Translations under genes and position numbers: made by a program
Notes under the pieces: generated by a model
What the model saw: only the letters and a program-made list of their open reading frames with translations
Told to the model about the DNA's origin: nothing
Databases searched by the model: none
Part shown: in pieces, positions 39,650 through 56,368 of the stretch
Numbering within the stretch: the stretch's first letter is position 1
Layout of the letters: every line of letters starts with the position of its first letter
From: Sphagnum compactum
Lineage: Eukaryota
Direction: 5' to 3'
DNA: 64,000 nt
Assembly: GCA_965153455.1 (NCBI GenBank)
Contig: OZ234493.1
Location: 35,702,213 to 35,766,212, forward strand

Positions 39650-40700
39650 TAATTGTGTGAAAAATCTTTGCAAATTGTGCAACAATTCCCCATGATGAAG
39701 ATCAAATCACGGATTATAACGAAAAGGCAACCAAAACATTTGCATTACTTTGTGAACATCTCATGGATGCACAACTTGCACATGTTCAATATTGCGAAAA
39801 TGTCAAAAGCGCTTGGGAGACGCTTTGCGGTGTCCACGAAGCCAACACTATTGGAAACAAGTTGTTTCTTTGAAGGAGGTTCTTCACCATCAAAATGCAA
39901 GAAGGGGAAGACTTGCTTGCGCACATCAACATGGTGAAGGCGCTTGCGGACCAATTACGTTCCATTGAGGTGAAGATTGAAGATGAGGACATGTACATGG
40001 TACTTCTCATGAGCCTTCCCCCATCTTTTGATAACTTGGTCACGAGTTTGGAGTCCATGTCCACCAAGGATGTTGACCTTCAATTCATCGTTGCTCGATT
40101 GCTTCATGAAGTCTCCAAAAAAAAAGAAAGTGAAAGTACGGAAAATGCCGCATTGCTTAACAAAACTCATAAGGCAAACGAAAAGCTTTGCTTTTATTAT
40201 AAAAAACCCAGACATTTTGTGAAGAATTGTTTGAAGAAGAAGAATGATGAGAAAGAAAAGGCAAACCGAGCTTGTGAAAATCAAGAACAAATGTTTGTTG
40301 TTGCGTTGGGTGTTAATGATCATACGACGAACGATTGGATCATCGATTCCGGGGCAACACAACACATAACATTCAAACGAGAGTGGTTCACCACTTACGA
40401 ATCCATTGTTCCACGAAAGGTGTACATGGGAGACGACACCATTTTGGAGGCCATTGGCAAAGGGTGCATCAAGGCCACAATGCAAGTTGAAGGTAAAATG
40501 TTTGTTAGAAATATTATTCGTTTCTAATTCATAATGTTGATGAATGTGTGAAACATTCATCAAATGGATGAATAGTATTCACATCCTTATAGTAGTTAGA
40601 TTAAGTTAAATAGTGGTAATTAGGGTTTGGAAGTGGAGGTTACTTAGGGCTTGGTGGCGGCTAGGGAAATGACCATCGAATCTCATACTTAGTTGCCACA
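39650..40700 (+). mobile_element. Ty1/Copia gag-protease relic joined to a probable LTR fragment
   Basis: Gag (UBN2-like) AWETLCGVHE...MQEGEDLLAHI...LLMSLPPSFDNLV, a decayed zinc knuckle CFYYKKPRHFVKNC, and protease WIIDSGATQHIT. The frame ends near 40503 at TGTTAGAAAT, an LTR-like start. Confidence 0.9.
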
Positions 40701-44737: not shown

Positions 44738-47351
44738 ATGGGTTTGGTCACTCCAGAGGAGTTAGCTCATGTAGCGAGACCGCAAACTCGTCGGCCGGTG
44801 GCGGCGGCCGATCAACGATGGAAGAGAGAGGAATGCGCATATGTGAAGCACGATAAGCTTTTCTCAGACTGGAAGGTACGTGATGTCGAGAGCTCTCTCT
44901 CTAGCTTCTTTCTTCGATTCTACCCAAGAAATCCTCTTCTGCTGGTGGCTGGAATTTCGTATGCAAAGTGTTCACATAGCTTCGAGAATTTACAGTTGTA
45001 GACCAGCCTTGTCGAACACGACGGTCCGGGGAGACAGATTTCACGGAAGAATCTGAACCTGAATTTGGATGTTGCTTAATTGTCGCGCAGCATAGCTAGA
45101 TTCAAACATTTGATTGTATTATTGTCGGAAGAAGAGTCTTACGAGGATGCGGAGCGCCTAACCTGTTTGGCTTGAGTACTTGAGGTGGCAGATCTTGGTG
45201 GGTCCGGAAGACTGGAAGGGTCATGCGGCAGGGAAGGAAGATGTAGAGAGGTATCGAGCGCACAACCTGCCTGGGAGTAACTGGGGGCCGGGAGTGTATG
45301 AGTTGGGTCTCGCGATGCCGGAATGGGCGGCAATGAATGAGCAAAGGGTTGGTCTGAAAAAGAAGGAGAAGAAGCTAAGGCCGCAGAATGTGATGGTGGT
45401 GTATGTAGGGAATGCGGAGCACATACGCCACAGGCTTCAGCGATACGGGGAAGCAGGTGGTCACCTCGAAGGCTCAAGGTAAATTTTCTTCCCTTACAAC
45501 TCTCTTCACTCACCATGCGGCACGGATTTACTGTCTCAATCTTGGAAGCTAATCATAGGCGCTGATCATGCTTAAAAGTCTTTCGAAGTCTTGGAATTTC
45601 TTCTAACAGGAGCTCTGATACTTCTCTTGAATGTTTAAGTCGGTGACAGCTGATCTCGTGATGGCTGCATCCTCGGCGCTGTGGGTTTTATGGTCTGCAG
45701 GTCGACAAGGTTGTTTGTGATCAAGGACGATGGATTCCATGGCAGCAGCTGGAAGAAATGCGAGCTGCAGCAAAATCGCGGTGCAGCACAGCAGCTAGTG
45801 CATCATGAAAGGATAGCAGCAGCCCCCACAGACTCGGAGTACTTCTACAAGTCATCATCAACTGAACAAGGAGTACGCAAGTCTTCGCGAGGCCCGCGCT
45901 TGTTTTCAGAGGTCTTTACTCTTGGCTGCGCAATAGCTTTCCGGTGGACGGCGGTGAGCTTCTCCCTCCAACTTCGTCTCAGTACGTCATGATTTCACTA
46001 GCTGACTAAACCGTGAACCCATGAGCTCGCGCTTGTTCTCATTCTCATCGAATGCAGTTGGAGAATTGTGCGTAGTACTAGACTTGTCAGAGAGATTCTA
46101 ACACATGGAAGCAGCTGGGATGTTTTTTTTGCTGCTCATGAGCATACTCCATGTGCAATTCGTACTGTACAGACAGAAAGTAAAGCAGCAGCGGAGAAGG
46201 CGACGGCAGAGCTGCTGGAGGTTTTCGACTACGCCTGGAACAGAGGCAGAAACGGATCTCGCCGATCTCGAGAAGTGATTGAAAAGACTCTGGTCGCACG
46301 CCAGTCGCCTGCAGGCGTTACTCGCAGTCGTTGTCATTGCTTTCGAACAAAGTCGAGATCGACATGGCTGCAGCCGTTCAGGGTGAACAGAAGAGTAGGC
46401 GTCAACATTGCCGCACGCAAACCGACGGAGTCGCGGGATCCGCCGCTAGAAGCAGCAGGCAGCAGCTGGAGTACTAGTCCATGTTTCAGCAGAAGAATGA
46501 AAGCGGGAGATTTTTGGATGTTGCTCAAATCTCGCGCACATCTGCTTCCTGGACTCGGAGGCAGGACTGCCAAAAACTGCGAGTTCACAAAGCTGGACAT
46601 CCCCATAGAAAGATGCGGAGCGTTGCTGGACACTGGTCTTCCATGTAATGCGCTGCCGGTTAGAGGCCGAAAGCGTTGCCGTATGCACAAAGATCTGAAA
46701 AGCACTAAAAGACGCCGATCAAAGCAGCAGCAGCATGCTACAGCAACGATCACAGGCCAACAGATCAGGACTTATCAACTTGGATCTTGGCTGCATGAGC
46801 ATATTGTGGGATCACGGAACACTAGATCTGCTAAGGAATGTTTAAAAGGAACATCCCATCATGAGGCTGCTGCAATGTCTCATAACAGCCAAAGAAGTGA
46901 TGTGATGGAACCCCAGTCCCGGAGCTTCACCATCTCTTGTCTTCCTTTGTTTTTGTTGCGAGCTGCTGGGATGAGGAAACACGAGTGCAGAACACAGGAT
47001 GTGATCAGGTCGCGAGTGAGTTTGTCATTCAGCACATGGCTCAAAACTTCCAGATCAGGCATGATGACAGAGACTGAAATCACTGCTGTAGCAGATGCAG
47101 CCGCCACAGCAGCAGCAGCAGCAGCAGCCATCAAACTGAAGACTAGTGCTGCCACTAGTGATCACATGAGCAACAACATGATGTTTTCCAAAGTAGAACT
47201 CCAAGGCCTTCAGAATGAGGACTTGTTTGAGCTCATTGTGCATAACATTTATGGATCATCGACACTATGTCATGTCCCTCCCATCACACACACCATGATG
47301 CAACGGAATTGTCCTTCACACTATTCAATGCATGCAGAAATTGGGATTTGA
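44738..47351 (+). CDS. ET: EFFECTOR OF TRANSCRIPTION / HRT-like protein (GIY-YIG-like domain plus ET zinc repeat), about 618 aa; exons 44738-44875, 45192-45478, 45701-45953, 46173-47351
   Basis: KREEC..VKHD..FSDWK, ILVGPEDW....GKE.VERYR.HNLP..GPGVYELG, VYVGNAEHIRHRLQRYG..G.HL, FRW, LL.VFDYAWN...NG.RR and CGALLDTGLPCNALPVRGRKRCRMHK. GT-AG junctions are in phase. Confidence 0.92.
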
Positions 47352-48616
47352 TGGCAACAACAGGAGCAAATTTGTGGAGCCAAGCTACAAACAAAGTAAG
47401 TTGAAGGAGCTGTAGCAGTTTTTTTCGCAATCAAAGAGTCTAGATCCAAGGAAGGAAACAGAAAACGACATTGCCTATATATCTATACATATCTCTGCAA
47501 ACCAAAGTATGATACAAGTTTTTTCCTCTTTTTGACCTCCATCAGCAAATTGCTGCCTTTCTGGATGATGAAACACATTGAAAACTAAAGCTAGCTGGTT
47601 TGTTTGAACACTCCCCAGCTTCCCCCCAAGCACTCAGAATTAGAATCCCCCAACTTCACACATTCTCAATGCATTTACTTGAGGATCAGGACTCAAGCTC
47701 ACAATCATGCAATTCTCAAGTAATGGATATTAGGCTCAGGAGAACTGTATTGAATTTCTACATTTTTGGCTTGTCAGCAAGGAAATTCAGGAAAGGCAAA
47801 TGGCATGGGGGACAGCATCACGATCCATGTCTACAAACAAGAAATTGTGTGACACTGAGAGTAGTTTTTATTTTAAAAAATTTAGTAGATTTTTAATCTC
47901 TTTACCTGAATCTCCACTGCAAGTTTTTGAACACAAACTAACCACTCATCACCACGCTACATTGAAAGTTCCTGAAAATCGCTTTCAAAGTAATCAGAAT
48001 TCTACAGACTTTTACACAGTAACTGTTGAAAATGCTTTTGGTTCTGGGAGTGATCTGTAGTTTAATATACATTAATTTTGTTTTTGGGTTTGTGGAACTT
48101 GTGACTCATTGTTGCCATTTATTTTCTCTTGTGACACGGTTTGTGAGAGTAGCTAGCTGCATGTGTTTTTCATACATCTACTCAGTCCTTCCTGCACCTT
48201 CGATCTTTGGGGTTTCTTCATTATAGTAGCGTCTATGAGCAGAGTTTGCATAATTTTCTATCCAGAGAACTATGGGATTTTTATGAGATTGTGGGCCTGC
48301 TCAAATAAGCATCTTCTGAGTTTATCGTGTGTATGATAACAAAGATGCTTGGAATCATGAACTCCTCTTCTTTTTTTAGTTTAAAATGCATATGATGATG
48401 ATGATGCTGATGAATCACAAGCTCCAGACATTTTCACCTCTGCATGATTATTGAAACTGGCAGTTGTACTCTTGCTTGCTCAGTCAAAAATTCCATTGCA
48501 GGTGGGTTCCATTCATAAGGCAAATAACCTCTAGTAAACAATAAAACTTTGCCAAATCATTCTTCACATGTAAATATATCTTTCATAAGAATAGAAAAAT
48601 CTCCGTTCTCACCATG

Positions 48617-49378
48617 AAGAAGAAACAGCAAGGCTAACACTTCCTCAGGGAGCCACAGAAAGAACCAAACAAGGGGAGACAAAAAACAAACAGAAAACGA
48701 AAAACACACACACCGGTATGAACAAAAGTGCCAGTCTCACACCTGTTCAGGGACCATCAACAGTAGTATGTATGATAGTGACTTAACTATCATTACTTCC
48801 CCACTGACTTCATCAGCTCCCTACAGTGGGTAAAGGCCGGTGACAAGCACCATCCTACGAACTGAGTTTCTGCTGCAATTCCAGAAGCATCGGGAAGACT
48901 CAGCCATACTACTGGCTAGCAACAGACCCCACAACAAAGACCAGACAAAGAAACAAAGAAAGACAGAAAGGGAAAAGAACAGGGAAAGACTAAGAACAAG
49001 AACAATTGGGCTTACAGGAAGCTCCCCACTTAAATGACCTGAAGCAAAATCATTCTGAAAATGCCAAAAGCGGAAATTCCAAACAGGAATTTTTCTTTAA
49101 GAACCAACCCTCTAGTTCTCTTTACAAGACTTTTAAAGGGTAGCCTTTTGCCTTCAGAAAGACAATAAGACTGACCATCTGGAAGACAAAAAACTTCTTA
49201 CAACTACAAAGTCTCAAAAGAATCTGTAAAATTGACTATTGATAACCCCCAGCTTCGCAGTCATTGAGATATTGGAATGAACATGAGGCATTCTAATCAT
49301 TTCAATACCTGCATACTCTGGTTGAGAGCGTTTGTCAAAAATGTCACAGGATAAACCTTGAGGACTCTGGCTCACAGG
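48617..49378 (-). mobile_element. 5'-truncated Penelope-like retroelement relic (RT C-terminus plus 3' tail)
   Basis: QSPQGLSCDIFDKRSQPEYAGIEMIRMPHVHSNISMTAKLGVINSQFYRF / LRLCSCKKFF...LKAKGYP resembles the PLE RT motif (Y/F)DKR...P...SN......G...SQ..R...C......GYP. Two frameshifts, stop at 49030, then about 400 bp of non-coding tail. Boundaries are approximate. Confidence 0.65.
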
Positions 49379-50282
49379 ACAAACTATGAAGCACAACAGG
49401 ACATGTAAAGACCACAAAACACTTTAGACTGGATGGTATACAGTTCAAATGCCAATTGAGAATAACCCTCTAAAGAGGTCTATTCTGATGGAACTAATTT
49501 GGGTTCCATAAGTATTCCAGATCAGAGAAGGAATCTGGTTGTGTAGCAGGCCCATGTTGATCACCAGCTGTGTCAATGAGCAGCTGCAATTCTATCAGTC
49601 TCATACCACAGGTATGACATTTCAAACATGTATCCAAAGTTCCAAAAGATAGCAACACAATTCCCCCAGATGCAACATGAGAGGTGGGAAAGAGTGGGCA
49701 CACTAGATCACCACTGTCTCCAGGAAACTTTCACAGACACTTGCAAAAGTTCACACAAAGGTTTTCCTCAACCAGAATGTCGCCTTCTGATAGCCTATAG
49801 CAGCAGATACATTGATGAGATTCGAGGAAACTCCAGAATAACACTATCAAGTTACTGTTGTGTCAGTTCAAGTCAAACCAAAACAAACACAACAGGAATT
49901 AGTGCAGTCATAATCTTGAGAGGGTCACTCACAAAGTATGATCACACCATCACCTTCATCATGAATGGCAGTGACAAGCCGACAGCAGCAAACATGTGCA
50001 ACAAATCTGGGGGCCCAAAATTCACCTATAACCCAAACCACAGCTATGCAAAGTAATCAAGTCATCATCATGGAGAGCCATGGCAAACCCCTGCATACAT
50101 CACTAAACAAAGCACTGACGTAATCCAAGAACAGGAGACCCCACCAGTACAATTGCCGTCTACTCTATGCCTTATGTTGTGAGCTAGACTGACAAAACTG
50201 AATGCACTAATCTCATCTCCATTATCCATATGAACAGGAAAGGAGAGGTGGGCACATTTCCCAGGTGACAGTTTGGTATCAG

Positions 50283-53200
50283 CTACTCGCCCACTGTCAT
50301 TCCAAATCCAAACTTGTAGTCCTTCTTCCAATGATCAATCTGTCAACAGAAAAAATTAACACTTAGTAAAATGAAGCAAAGACTTAAAAAAGGAACACAA
50401 TTGGGAGAAAGCATACAACATTAGATGGAAAACCTCTCTAGGCAAGGCCCCTCTGAACTTTCACTGCATGCACCAAGACCTTTTGCAGTTCAGAAGTGAT
50501 CACAAAACAAATCAATATAGTGAAGGAACCTAAGTATACAAGGCAAGCAGCCAGACTACAACAACACCTGCACCAGGTCTCAGGACCATAAAATGGAGCT
50601 GTTTCCTTGACCAAGTCATGGCATTTGTACATACTGGGTAAAGTCTACATGCAAATGTGGTTTTCTGCATCCATTACTCTGTATCAATAAACTGGAATGT
50701 TTGCAAAAAGTTGATTCCTAAGTTCATCACCTCATTGGAAGAAGAGTCTCAACTCATATAGGTAACAACAGAAACAGCATGTCAGAAACAATGAATTCCT
50801 CAAAGAATATAGATTTCACCCTGTTATACTCAGGTATCTCAGGTATTATTTCAAGTGAAAGACAGCTCAAGTGCACTTTGCTATTGATGCCCTCTAGCAC
50901 TTAGCAATTCATGTACGTACTACTTCTGGGACCAGACATCTACCCTAGCAAGAGTGTGAAAGTGAGGATGAGCATGTAAGGTACCTCTGCAGACAGCAAA
51001 AAGTTGACTCCAAGGTTGAGCCTCTCTTCCAGAAAAGCTGCCACGGAACCATTTGTATCCAGTCTACCTCTTAAACGGCACTGCACAAATGCAAAGCAAA
51101 CAATGCATTCTTTAACTCTCTAACAAGGAGATACCAGAGCTCTTGTAAATTGCCACTGAAATTTTTGGTGGTGGAACTAGAAACAATCTCTCATGCAAAG
51201 TTCAGCATCTGTCCCTAGAACTTTGGAGGGGCATACATATATGACCTGAGCTCAGGCCTACTTAACAAAGAACCAGTTCAAGCTAGATGAAGAGATCATA
51301 GGACTCAAACTTGGGTAGTGCCACCTTCTGGGAGTAAGGTCCCTCTAGATAGGCTACCACATTTCCAAGCTAATCAGTAGGCACATCAGTGAAGTTCAAC
51401 TAGTTATGTAGACCTGAACATATATCCAACTAGAGCTTCAAGAGAAGCACCATTGAATGGACATATAACTACATTCCAGACCTACCTGGCGAAGGAGGTA
51501 GTCATAGCCAACAGTTGTAGTTGCCTCCTTGGTGTTCCAATTGTATAGAAAGTCTGATGCCAATGATACCTGGTGCAAAAGTCATCAATCAGCTTCTATG
51601 ACAGAGGGACTCACAGAGAGTGGCATGACACCAGATCAAAGCAATCCAACCACCCATGTCCCTTCCTGTCTTGCTCTCCAGAGTCAACGCTTTCAGTAGC
51701 TACAAACTATTTGCATGTACACCAATCCAAAAGACTCAAAGAACTTCATCACCATTTTGAGCCAGACTGAGCTGCAGAATGCAGGCACAAGGAAACAACC
51801 AAGCAATGAAGAAATAGAGAAGTTACCTTGTCTGATACCCTTTGCACATAGGTTAAAGACAAAATGCCAGTGCTTGCAAATTGTGCTGTTGCTATCTGCA
51901 TATACAGCATGATTCAGAATGCAGACACTGAAGAAAAATGACTGGATCTAGGGATTTTTGCAGAAGTGATCAATCAGGATCAAACCTTGTCTCTAAAATA
52001 GACATGAAAATTCCACAACCATTGAGCAAGTGTGAACAGGTAAAAACATTTTGGCAAGAATTGGGAAAGATCAAGGACAGGAATTGCAGGGTTTGCAGGA
52101 GGCATATCCACACCGCTTTATCAGTATTGTATCGGCCAGCAAAACCAATGCCTGACTTCCGCTGCTGACCCAGCCAGAAAACTTCTCCTCCCAAAGCCAG
52201 TGTTGGTGTTACACTCTGTACTGCCCACCACATTCTCCTTGTTACTGTTCCCACTGGTCAACCTATTCTCAACAGCAGTTTGCCTCCACCTTCTAAGATC
52301 AATTAACAAAAAATACCAGACAAACTTGAGTAGCCTGTCATGTGCCAGTGACCCAATAGTAACGAGCATCTCCTACAACTAGTGTTGAAAAATATTCTCT
52401 TGCACATTTGGTACCACATGCAAAAGCAATCTATGTGGCTGAGGCAAAACCCAGGAGGTTGACAGAAAGGTTGCTGGCTAAGAACCTGGATGTAATTAAA
52501 CCCATAGAAAGCATTGTTGCCCAATTGCAACTGGGCCTGATAATCGCCCCCCTGTTCAAGTTCCAGAGCAAGACATCCAATCCCCAGACTTAGCAATTCC
52601 AGGCACAACAATACATTGCAATCCTCTGAAGTTGATAACTGCCAGCTCCTGGCTTTGATGACTTCAGTCAAGCTAGTTATCAGTACAACCTACTTTCCAT
52701 CCACAGGAGAATGAAATAAAAGGATCAAGAACACCAAATTTTGGTCACTGACATGCCCCAATAAGATCATGCAAGAAAGGAAAAATGGACAGAGATCACC
52801 TACCCTATAGTCAAAATGGAACATCCCTTGTGAAAAGTGAGGCTCATTTGTAATCTGTCTCCCAAAAACCATCATCACAACATAAGCCATGAATGTAAGA
52901 CTGTAACTTCATGTCATCACTTATAGCAACTGCAACCCAAAAAACAACTCATGGGAATCAATTAACATGGGAATAAAAAGGGTGCTTGGTTATATAACCT
53001 ACAGGCTTTGCAAACCTACTTGAGCATTCGCTTTGATGGAGAAACGATCAGTAACATCATACTTGATCCGGGCACTCATACGACCATCTGTCAAGATACG
53101 TCCGATGAGCATTGTCATCTGCACACCCACTCACGATCTTAAGATCTTCCATAATTGAAAACCACATAGTGGACCTAGACTTGGAACATTCAATGAAATG

Positions 53201-55431
53201 TTCAAGATGCATTTGTCTTAAGATAGCCAACCTGTCACAACAGAACCTGCCTCAATCCCATCAGTACAGTCACAAGACATTGAGCTTGAAAAAACTGAGC
53301 CTAACCCACCAATCTCTTTTGCAACATCTGTTCCATGTTACTTTACTTCAGTCACCACACCTTGAACCCTTCATACCAAAGAATCCTATGGGCAAAGTCA
53401 ATCTGGTCGATGAAGAGCACTTGTGAATGAAAGGAGAAAGATATAAACAGAGAGCCCAGAGAAGACAAGAATAAGTATATACAACAGGAGGGAGAGTAGA
53501 AGAATAGAAGATAAACCCGTTGGTCTATAAGGTTTGCTCCAAACTCATAATGAGCAGCTGGAACCTTGATGATTTGGGCTCCCTGAGATGGCACCTCCAC
53601 AGAACCCATGAACAAACTGCACAGATACAATCTCCAAGCATCATACACTATCCTGCTTCATGTACTCACACACATGCTCAGTACAAATACCTGTAGCCAC
53701 AGAATGCTCTACTACAATCACAACTTCCTGATTGTTAAGCCCATGAGTGACACTGTACGAAATCCATCAGTGAACACATTCAGAAACTACTTAACTCCTG
53801 GATCACACTATGACCACTTTACAACAGGGTACAGCAGAATGACTATCCCACTGTCCTAATGAGTGATGCACTAACATGCCAGCAAGTAATCTGTTGGTAT
53901 TTGTTGCAAAAGACACCTCCATCCAAGCACTATGATACAGAGATGTATACAATACAAGAGAAAATAAGGCAACAGATATATAATTGGAAAAGCGAACCTC
54001 CACACCTGTGGCTTAATGAAAACCTTTGATTGAGAGGCTTGGTGAAGTCAAATCGCAGGCCTTCAAAAAGCTCTGGTTTCAGAGACACTTCCCACATCAC
54101 AAGAAAAATGTCAGCCCTTCTATTTGTGTCAACAGCACTCTTCTCTGAAACAATGTTCTGCTTTCTGAGAGAAAAGATAGAACCAATTAATAAACACTGT
54201 AATATTTCTTACTGGTCTGTGCACAAAACAGCCCATACAAAATGAGTTTTACATCTGCATCCTAAACCCTAATTTCCATTAGTTTGATCAGCTGCAGATC
54301 TAGTGGATTGTGATCACACGTTGCATTACAACACAACCAACACACTGCTCTTATGTCTGGACAAAATCCCTTCTCAAAGTAGGGATTTCGAAAAAGACAT
54401 ACAAGAACTCGACTTCACTGTCACCTGCTGACTCACAAGTGACTTGATTCTTAAACCCTAAAAAGAATATTGCTAATATCTGTCATTGAATGTGGAGATC
54501 CAAGGAAAGTAGCCAGTTTCACACTGAAATTGGGCATGGAAAAGCTCAATCCCCTCATACTACACCTGGACATTCATGTGCATTCAAGGGCATTGTGTTG
54601 ACTCAATCTAGACTCTCTGAGGGTTTAAGGCGAGTTATAACAATGATGTCAGTCAACACAAGATCCTATTCCAAATTCTTTTTCATGGGATGAAAGCTTG
54701 GAATGTTCCTAGTAGGCTACGTAATACAGTATCAAGGACACACAGATGGCCAACTTGCGAGAGGAATCTAGTGAGTGACTCCTGCACAGGTCCACACCAG
54801 ACGAGCAAAAGGTTTTACTTCACTTAATACACACATGAAGAAGTAGTCTCAGACAATCTACAATTTCAGCAAACCTTGGATTTAAAGACTAGAGAGGGTG
54901 CATGCAGGTGAGCAGCATTCTTGTGAAAATGTTTCAAGGACGTGGATGGTCTGGTGTGCTCAGTTCCACGAACTCCTAAGGAACAAATGTGTAACCTTGG
55001 GGCTATGATCAATGCATACAAAAGGAATACATACACTTCCTTGCCGAAAATTGTTCCCTTCGTCATAAAAGGTTCCCTCATTTTCGGCAATGTGCCAGAC
55101 ATGAAACGCCATCTCATTCGAGGGTTAAGCTCACGCATGCAACTGGAGCTTACCAAAGAAAAAAAACACGCGCGCTCACACGCACCCACAACACTCATCT
55201 TCAAATCAGGCCATGCCGCTCTCCCTTGCATGCCACCAGAGGAAGGGGAGGAAAGGAGGGGGAGAGGAATCGGATCTTACTGATATTTTCACGTTGAATC
55301 TCCTCATACTTCACGGGGCACGGCAAGTTGAGCCAGTCAACAGAATCCACACCCTTGTTGTCCCTCTCCTCCTTCGCGTCCGCCGTCGAGGGCTGGAGCG
55401 CCGCTGCAGCGTAACTCACAGCTCCCCCCAT
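50283..55431 (-). CDS. TOM40: Mitochondrial import channel TOM40, 11 exons (first 55431-55281, second 54087-54006, last about 50339-50283)
   Basis: Exons encode [131 protein letters not shown] and [17 protein letters not shown]. Confidence 0.97.
51210..51366 (-). mobile_element. Possible tRNA-derived SINE in a TOM40 intron
   Basis: A-box-like TAGCCTATCTAG (51356-51345) and B-box-like GTTTGAGTCC (51310-51301) are 34 bp apart. No TSD was confirmed. Confidence 0.35.
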
Positions 55432-55910
55432 AACCCCAATATTTATTTGACAAAAAACCCCCGGAGAACGCGAGGAGGAGGATCACTACCCACCCCCACC
55501 TGCGCCTGCACGAAACTAATGAGTGCCGGCCAAAAGCAGTAGACTACAGGGGTGGCACCGGAGCACAAATCGACAAAGATGCAGCTGCGGTAGTTGGAGG
55601 GCAAGAAAGAAAAAGGAAAAACAGAACCAAAAGGCAAAGCGCGAGGGCAGTGGAGCCAGCAGCAAGCAGGCTCTCACACCATCGCACTCCACAACAGGGG
55701 AGGCAGCGTCGTCGTCGTGGTCGTGTGGTAGGCTTCGTTGGATGGAAAGAAAAGGGAAGCAATTTTAGGGTATAGAACAGGTACAGGGAACTTTTAGGGT
55801 ATACGTAGTTATACGAAGAAATACGTACCCAGGTACGTAAGTAGGCAGTCGAAAATACGGACCCGGAAGGGATTCTTTGTCTCAAGTACAATACCTATAC
55901 ACCTATACCT

Positions 55911-56368
55911 AGGGGCCTGTTCCACCTAAGAACAACCCCAAGCCCGGTTGGGACCAACGTGATTCCGCTAAGTGGTAACAGGCTCTACCAAGAGGCTTGT
56001 TCCAGTGCCAATGTCACATTGCGTTCAGTAGTAACAGGCTCGTGTTCCGCCCAGTTGATGCGTATCATAAGTGGAACATTATGAACGTGGAACCAGCAAG
56101 TGGTCCCTGTTGTTGATTCCGACCATAAGTGGAACTGGGAGAACAAAAAATGTGGATCTAGCTAAGCACATTGTCCCCAGGTTGTATCATAAGTGGAACT
56201 GGCTGTATTAGAAGGTGGAACCAACATGTCTTCCCCACTCTTGATGAGTAGAACTGGCAGAGTTATATGGTGGAACCAGCACATGTTGCCCACTTAGTGG
56301 ATCGTATCGGAAGTGGAACTGGCAGAATTTTAAGTGGAACCAGCAGAATGGCTACCGCTCCCCACCTC
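55911..56368. repeat. MITE-like element with reiterated (A)GTGGAAC motifs, upstream of TOM40
   Basis: About ten AAGTGGAAC/GTGGAACC motifs on the right side and inverted GTTCC(A/G)C motifs on the left. Confidence 0.55.

Follow-up and report, generated by a model that had tools for sequence, protein, structure and literature searches.

The 64,000-nucleotide stretch of Sphagnum compactum DNA under analysis (the window) contains an 830-bp copy of a Penelope-like element (PLE) which was, very probably, dead on arrival and comes from a Chlamys-type family of peat moss that bears an endonuclease and has been active recently. The window copy is itself a dead fragment that encodes nothing functional; the identity of the family comes from its longer copies. 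An N-terminal GIY-YIG endonuclease without CCHH motif, the presence of an IFD, a reverse transcriptase (RT) predicted to fold like telomerase, and the grouping of that RT with CCHH-less relatives together lead to the endonuclease-bearing Chlamys elements. An earlier note, made from the letters alone, had proposed a truncated Chlamys-type insertion, and this proposal stands: longer copies carry the GIY-YIG–RT frame upstream, their endonuclease lacks CCHH, and in the tree their RT is placed apart from the Naiad-type clade. In this genome, though, the element is neither rare nor an old relic – there are hundreds of copies, with a median pairwise distance of 4.3% (last 790 bp, 49 copies).

Structure and decay of the window copy

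The element is larger than originally called: in place of an extent of 49030–49378 (or a start at 48617) it spans 48577–49406. Its parts, and one older neighbour, are as follows.

48577..49406, minus strand: inserted PLE copy, 830 bp, 5′-truncated and internally deleted, with a 3′ end common to 46 of 46 loci
49401..49409, minus strand: target site duplication (TSD), 5′ copy, 9 bp, the last 6 nt of which overlap the 5′ end of the element (microhomology)
48566..48574, minus strand: TSD, 3′ copy; 11 bp with one mismatch allowed
49378..49406, minus strand: 29-nt 5′ stub, coding for RT just ahead of motif 5
49377..49378, minus strand: junction of a 163-bp deletion with loss of the catalytic FVDD motif, in one of 32 spanning copies
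49030..49377, minus strand: RT C-terminal/thumb coding remnant, without C-terminal endonuclease
49032..49030, minus strand: stop TAA of the coding remnant
48577..49029, minus strand: 3′ UTR (~450 nt), up to the fixed terminus; forms the pseudo-LTR in tandem copies
48772..48831, minus strand: conserved 3′ UTR core, a putative stem-loop with a CUGAUGA hammerhead half-core followed by a second putative hairpin; present in older repeats too
49829..49979, minus strand: older dispersed-repeat relic, inserted separately, from a repeat family that has the 3′ UTR core in common with the element

The minus-strand peptides to which attention had been drawn are present and spread over three frames: DIFDKRSQPEYAGIEMIRMPHVHSNISMTAKLGVINSQFYRF in the first (at ~49345–49220), LRLCS...KGYP in the second, and a last part in the third, which runs to the stop codon. 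Their counterparts in longer copies are the C-terminus of the RT and the thumb, with identities of 91%, 79% and 78% (E-values of 1e-40 and 2e-12), in agreement with the initial assignment to the C-terminal RT region of a PLE. The reading frame is broken twice, by a +2 frameshift near 49218 and a -1 frameshift near 49130. As had been observed, no C-terminal endonuclease is encoded; the stop is followed by the 3′ UTR. The N-terminal GIY-YIG that the family has was lost from this copy through truncation.

The claim that the copy is 5′-truncated is correct insofar as a true 5′ end lies at 49406, but the edge on which it was based, 49377/49378, is an internal deletion. The stub upstream of this edge aligns ~190 bp farther upstream in other copies, and the edge must therefore mark the loss of an internal stretch, 163 bp in length and bounded by a 2-nt CT microhomology, that includes the FVDD of RT5. 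A second apparent carrier of the deletion, L097, recovered by a regular-expression match, is really a tandem duplication. Other top matches in a genome search with 48600–49800 begin nearly all near 49377, and the fixed 5′ end which this would imply is an artefact of the window copy's own deletion. A further stretch of degraded RT at 49400–50300 was also considered and rejected: it gives no tblastn match, and is made up of an older short repeat together with sequence lying downstream of the adjacent gene.

A young family with hundreds of copies

The same search returned 953 candidates, of which 40 were scored; the other 39 top matches are 93–96% identical to the window copy, and its nearest copy lies at a distance of 2.4%. 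The 27-nt 3′ terminus has 203 exact matches in the genome compared to none for a reversed control. The check for further copies that had been called for is thereby answered, and the single-copy case is refuted. Taken with the rate at which the exact terminus is carried by copies picked on similarity (32 of 42), the 203 exact matches give ~270 young copies as a rough floor; the window copy is itself one base off the 27-nt sequence.

All 46 loci share one terminal 3′ octamer, while 5′ ends vary. Among 26 pattern-picked loci the shortest copy is 35 bp and the longest exceeds 1.5 kb, and longer copies reach ~4.3 kb, with an element body of ~4.34 kb in L047. Three loci (L050, L051 and L060) contain a pseudo-LTR, a 150–440-bp 3′ fragment arranged head-to-tail ahead of the body, and at the junction of each there is a run of six T plus ~70 nt more. 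An optional 30–40-bp tail or inverted 5′ copy, both common but not obligatory in PLEs, was flagged in none of the 46 loci.

Five near-full-length copies that are 99% identical (L024 and L045–L048) might be taken for five jumps; having the same flanks and the same TSD they comprise one near-full-length insertion, copied five times together with a host gene that we take to be CWC22-like. Three of the five sit within 250 kb of a contig start.

Older layers are evident also. The genome contains endonuclease families at 42–49% amino-acid identity to the present one, and older repeats that share its 3′ UTR core, an example being the relic at 49829–49979 (76–83% identity to other members; 1434 first-look candidates), whose repeat family probably consists of 3′ ends left by a PLE family that is older or non-autonomous. 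These older endonuclease families and old core-bearing repeats point to several waves of amplification over a long time. Separately, a composite repeat (G000) made of 86% and 43% pieces of the endonuclease region ~700 bp apart occurs at more than 25 loci (for example C18:9070524 and C14:14315436; also L104 and L105), and has the look of a non-autonomous derivative with an amplification of its own. Ten further fragments (L052–L059, L062 and L063), located on C20 and near several contig ends, are internal pieces of the element with an identical start that lie inside larger repeats; these were apparently carried within another multiplied unit.

Coding capacity of longer copies

In longer copies a single frame runs from a GIY-YIG domain at the N-terminus through a linker to CxC, GTKFR, DKC, an RT with IFD, FVDD and thumb, and stops directly behind the thumb without a C-terminal GIY-YIG. 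The upstream GIY-YIG–RT frame that had been predicted thus exists; at metagenome locus L133, for instance, endonuclease and RT occupy one frame of ~1030 codons with two stops and no frameshift, and L134 has 803 open codons up to the stop. No unbroken endonuclease–RT frame was present among the ORFs at 4 + 19 genome loci and 80 metagenome loci. The GIY-YIG domain keeps its R, H, E and N residues, has no cysteines between its two motifs, and lacks both CCHH and CX2-5CxxC; its Pfam match (E 0.0011) is under the cut-off. The CxC motif reads CAC. The spacing between RT3 and RT4, which reflects the IFD, is 100 aa, compared to a median of 84 in 13 CCHH rows and 92–108 in 6 CCHH-less rows (counted solely in rows where both motifs matched).

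Longer copies, including L133, have no in-frame ATG ahead of the endonuclease, and for this reason the frame is likely to acquire its start by splicing or to begin at a codon other than AUG. Land plants are not known to have selenocysteine machinery, and on this ground a read-through of the upstream UGA codons was set aside. Selection on the protein was gauged by comparison with L134: dN/dS is 0.41–0.56 in all eight copy pairs, a range that would be expected from selected master lineages mixed with neutral decay.

Pfam gave no RT match for the family protein and a PDB profile search gave no match at all. For the predicted structure of the RT (pLDDT 84.5) the top ~15–16 ranks of the fold matches are all telomerase structures (best E 9e-11), with group II intron RTs not appearing before rank 28.

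Relatives

An unfiltered protein search gave 323 proteins at E 1e-30 or better, from which the 173 that cover the RT core were kept. Removal of 29 rows (28 near-duplicates and one ambiguous), of every second CCHH row, and of endonuclease-less rows scoring below 180 preceded a quick 70-row tree, computed with SH-aLRT support only and with neither bootstrap nor canonical PLE outgroups nor named references for Chlamys. Here the family belongs to a 35-row group (SH-aLRT 97) that holds 14 CCHH-less rows and no CCHH row, while all 24 CCHH rows are in a separate 26-row group (SH-aLRT 95). The tree places the RT outside the Naiad-type (CCHH) clade, in the company of unnamed CCHH-less proteins. The CCHH-less rows do not form one group: nine of 23 lie beyond the midpoint, on the side of the Naiads, a pattern to be expected of a paraphyletic Chlamys. 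Another quick tree, of 29 rows and on the C-terminal part, unites the family with a Psilotum fragment and three unnamed proteins (support 100), and the family is again outside the CCHH clade.

Only two of 30 relatives looked up by name have an organism attached. The nearest named relative is a transcript of the whisk fern Psilotum nudum (P0162, EukProt), 55% identical over 182 aa, which is 63% identical to an unnamed sister family (P0094). The best full-length named match (36%) is from the ichthyosporean Amoebidium parasiticum (P0134/P0283, EukProt), in whose transcriptome there is, contamination being possible, a full-length CCHH-less PLE with N-terminal GIY-YIG; the consulted part of PMC8557442 lists no Chlamys-type elements from opisthokont protists. 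In two other database proteins (P0042 and P0045) a Naiad-type RT is combined with PF00443 (ubiquitin hydrolase) at the C-terminus. A search of the ESM Atlas gave unnamed eukaryotic clusters only, and a prokaryote genome collection yielded no relatives among 47 pattern matches.

Comparison with known elements and alternative readings

The likeness to the minimal Chlamys elements – Chlamys-1_meVir of Mesostigma and Chlamys-1_cAtm of Chlorokybus, as presented in the consulted part of PMC8557442 – is extensive. Common to both are a single ORF with an N-terminal GIY-YIG that lacks CCHH and CX2-5CxxC, the CxC and GxKF motifs, a DK motif without conserved third residue, a long IFD, 5′ truncation, pseudo-LTRs, genome-wide spread and no canonical hammerhead. 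The length of ~4.3 kb lies within the range of 3.3–8.2 kb given there for Chlamys, and short motifs are shared in the endonuclease region with both elements (by eye, first ~400 residues in supplement S4). The moss family differs from minimal Chlamys in its land-plant host, in that no start codon was found, and in its one 3′ end with no optional tail seen. From most Chlamys it differs in its targets, which are T-rich unique sequences with clear TSDs of 9–23 bp rather than (CA)n/(C)n microsatellites; such a bias is not obligatory, as meVir and several other Chlamys are listed with no preference in the consulted supplement of PMC8557442. Only for Chlamys-3_cRei does the same source show that the pseudo-LTR has a promoter and the 5′ UTR an intron.

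If the moss family belonged instead to the endonuclease-less PLE-X group nothing would be extended, for PLE-X is already hinted at in mosses by a few strong BlastP matches (Craig et al. 2021, PMC8557442, consulted part). PLE-X elements of Selaginella and Chara share with it the CxC motif, an IFD-type RT and non-seed-plant hosts, and the window copy, taken on its own, has no endonuclease and bears a CUGAUGA half-core in its 3′ UTR. But PLE-X has no GIY-YIG, a CxCX1-8C N-terminal extension and hammerheads, whereas longer moss copies carry a GIY-YIG within the RT frame, their N-terminus is unlike the first 400 aa of four PLE-X proteins (by eye, supplement S4, consulted in part), no canonical hammerhead was found, and insertions occur genome-wide and not in 28S rDNA, the target of Selaginella PLE-X (PMC8557442, consulted part). 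The reading is largely refuted already, and we regard it as highly improbable. It follows that the Selaginella elements offered in the earlier note as a precedent for an N-terminal GIY-YIG are not one: in the consulted part of PMC8557442 these are endonuclease-less PLE-X with hammerheads, in 28S rDNA. An animal-type Naiad element that entered moss by horizontal transfer, as Dryad did in conifers, has about equally little to recommend it. The permuted endonuclease–RT order, CxC, IFD and pseudo-LTRs are common to Naiad and the moss family, many word-indexed matches (24–29% identity) are CCHH-bearing Naiad-type proteins, and an 'HHR half core' and missing start codons are listed for several Naiads in supplement S1 of PMC8557442 (consulted part); however, the moss endonuclease has neither CCHH nor an upstream Zn-finger, its RT has DKC and not DKA and a longer IFD, the best full-length matches of the unfiltered search are CCHH-less (30–36%), and neither tree places it in the CCHH clade. 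With Penelope/Poseidon elements (conifer Dryad and PAc of Anolis; PMC11167929, consulted part) the family has in common a telomerase-like RT, a GIY-YIG nickase, a pseudo-LTR, AT-rich targets and a start of reverse transcription at a defined internal RNA site (putative for moss); it lacks their C-terminal endonuclease and hammerhead, and has the IFD that they do not. Most remote of all is a LINE, a group II intron, a non-RT protein or a single-copy chance match, in spite of the missing Pfam RT match and of a fixed 3′ end, 5′ truncation and long TSDs that would fit LINEs too. This case, named in the earlier note as the one that would overturn it, did not hold: the predicted fold is nearest telomerase, with group II intron RTs far down the ranking, the endonuclease is GIY-YIG and not AP/REL, and the family has pseudo-LTRs, no poly(A) tail and hundreds of copies. 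Judged by its motifs, then, the family is of Chlamys type and not of Naiad, PLE-X or Penelope/Poseidon type, published Chlamys proteins having been compared by eye only.

A different question is how a Chlamys-type family came to be in Sphagnum. Horizontal transfer, with a fern, a different bryophyte or an aquatic protist as the donor, in place of descent from streptophyte algae, is unlikely, though by no means to be neglected. The identity to Psilotum nudum and the fully supported five-row group are close for the moss–fern split, the best full-length named match is an ichthyosporean, and the protein searches gave no named matches from other mosses. Against this, the much older endonuclease families and old 3′ UTR relics indicate long residence in the lineage, and most relatives are unnamed, so that gaps in range may be due to sampling. 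Other retroelement RTs, moreover, can hold such identity levels across land plants.

In the consulted part of Craig et al. (2021, PMC8557442) endonuclease-bearing Chlamys are listed only from algae and Physarum, with land-plant members being endonuclease-less, and for land plants the consulted part of a 2022 review names Dryad and PLEs without endonuclease, and no others. Bryophytes do have PLE calls that are unclassified: a liverwort assembly table, as far as consulted, gives 346 generic Penelope matches. We found no report, mainly in the open literature, of endonuclease-bearing Chlamys in a moss or fern – an entry in a repeat database being possible – and no paper that combines Sphagnum and Penelope. 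Other PLE literature (PMC9033089, PMC10288648, PMC12130436 and PMC11630846) and preprints (10.64898/2026.07.22.740005 and 10.64898/2026.09.17.752431) were drawn on in part for comparison. It is probable that the host range of endonuclease-bearing Chlamys extends to land plants. A young family of hundreds of copies in peat moss, together with a whisk-fern relative, supports the view of Chlamys as an old component of green-lineage genomes; what is more unusual is that the moss family kept its endonuclease.

A more specific proposal, which we advance tentatively and with rather less than an even expectation that it is right, is that the family represents an undescribed land-plant lineage of endonuclease-bearing Chlamys, found in peat mosses and ferns and derived from streptophyte algae, still transcribed and very recently mobile, that primes on a U-tract – possibly, then, in mirror image of LINE-1 priming – and whose 5′ ends may be healed with telomeric repeats. 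Were this true the family would be the cleanest system in which to read the integration chemistry of PLEs with N-terminal endonuclease from a genome.

Target sites and a proposed mechanism of integration

Target duplications of Naiad and Chlamys are often unreadable (PMC8557442, consulted part). Because the moss family avoids microsatellites its TSDs and junctions are readable, which makes the mechanism of priming testable. TSDs of at least 9 bp were detected in 52 of 68 loci, five of which had their 5′ end outside the analysed DNA, compared to two of 300 mismatched-flank controls. A stricter finder recovered TSDs in 47 of 67 loci, with a range of 9–23 bp and a median of 16, lengths that are slightly inflated by the one mismatch allowed. 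The upstream TSD copy, which is the target itself, has T at +1 in 41 of these 47 loci and at +2 to +6 in 25–29, set against 32% T in flanks. The targets are unique sequence spread throughout the genome, and no (CA)n or (C)n insertion bias was seen in the 47 loci. An ATT preference of the kind known from PAc was not seen; A stands at -1 in 12 of the 47 loci, without bias.

Junctions have two further peculiarities. In five copies (the window copy, at 48575–48576 between its 3′ TSD copy and the common 3′ end, plus L015, L086, L087 and L132) the common 3′ end is followed by one or two extra nucleotides, T or TA, not matching the target, which suggests that initiation involved slippage. Plant telomeric repeats, two or three in number, stand between the TSD and the truncated 5′ end at three of 68 loci (L005, L007 and L084), compared to 13 of 4047 windows in the flanks; such repeats are present once more at an internal junction of L049. 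Of these four fillers two are G-rich and two C-rich. Healing of the telomerase type, acting on one or the other free end, would account for this, the numbers being small.

The T-rich sites and duplications of 9–23 bp suggest priming on the U-tract just past the fixed 3′ end, and from the genomic junctions we infer the following route, a form of target-primed reverse transcription. The GIY-YIG endonuclease would nick the bottom strand at a site that is T-rich in the sense strand; the A-rich 3′ end at the nick would pair with the U-tract which, in tandem RNA that spans a pseudo-LTR junction, comes after the fixed 3′ end; and the RT would begin there, in most cases dropping off early. A staggered second nick would give rise to the target duplication. 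In the window copy the RT may have jumped 163 nt via the 2-nt microhomology (or the stretch may have been deleted later), halted 29 nt beyond the jump, and been joined to the target through the 6-nt microhomology; the frameshifts would have arisen after insertion.

The T bias could also come from endonuclease preference alone. PAc, a Poseidon element and the sole PLE studied in vitro, initiates internally at a site without homology to its target (PMC11167929, consulted part), and for this reason a pure endonuclease preference stays a rival to U-tract priming. The moss family differs from PAc, which prefers ATT in that account, in that target and RNA continuation share a T-run.

The 3′ UTR

The 3′ UTR folds with a z of -2.3, and contains the CUGAUGA half-core at 48816–48810. 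Pairing in the two core hairpins is kept in 82% of cells, with two-sided changes at three of seven pairs of the second hairpin. Together these suggest a structured core, its covariation score being reached by 32 of 500 shuffles and so not beyond relatedness. A hairpin at the pseudo-LTR junction showed no covariation among its three copies. A hammerhead or other ribozyme was considered and rejected: Rfam searches of the window copy and pseudo-LTR junction gave chance matches only, a loose type I hammerhead descriptor gave no convincing fold, and what is present is the half-core alone.

Expression and genomic neighbourhood

Pfam RT models miss the family, and fragments of it find their way into gene models, as in a database protein named from Sphagnum compactum that carries a piece of its RT. 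Element sequence is frequent in RNA data, with 20 of 24 listed runs (12 studies, five organisms; those with element words being labelled moss or plant metagenome) holding about half of the sampled element words. One stranded poly(A) run has 3512 reads on the element, nearly all sense, at a depth of 1–5 over the 5′ part and 100–560 near the 3′ end. These reads may derive from host read-through; reads on the flanks run in the same direction. No splice joint in the element was among those listed for this run, at the 5′ depth just given.

The window copy sits between two convergent host genes. The plus-strand gene at 45162–47351, 1.2 kb from the element, has matches to the GIY-YIG domain PF19239 and presumably belongs with the Effector of Transcription family; that it might be the element's endonuclease was rejected, as it is a host gene on the opposite strand. 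On the minus strand a multi-exon gene at ~50283–55480, with a weak Porin_3 match and a last exon that stops near 50283, is what we take to be TOM40 (probably). The PLE has the same orientation as this gene and lies ~875 bp behind its stop, where it may be within or close to the 3′ UTR. A cluster of short imperfect direct repeats (15–51 nt) with a GTGGAAC core is located at 56062–56349, upstream of this gene, and at 39874–40527 on the plus strand a Ty1/copia-like gag–protease fragment was recognised by eye.
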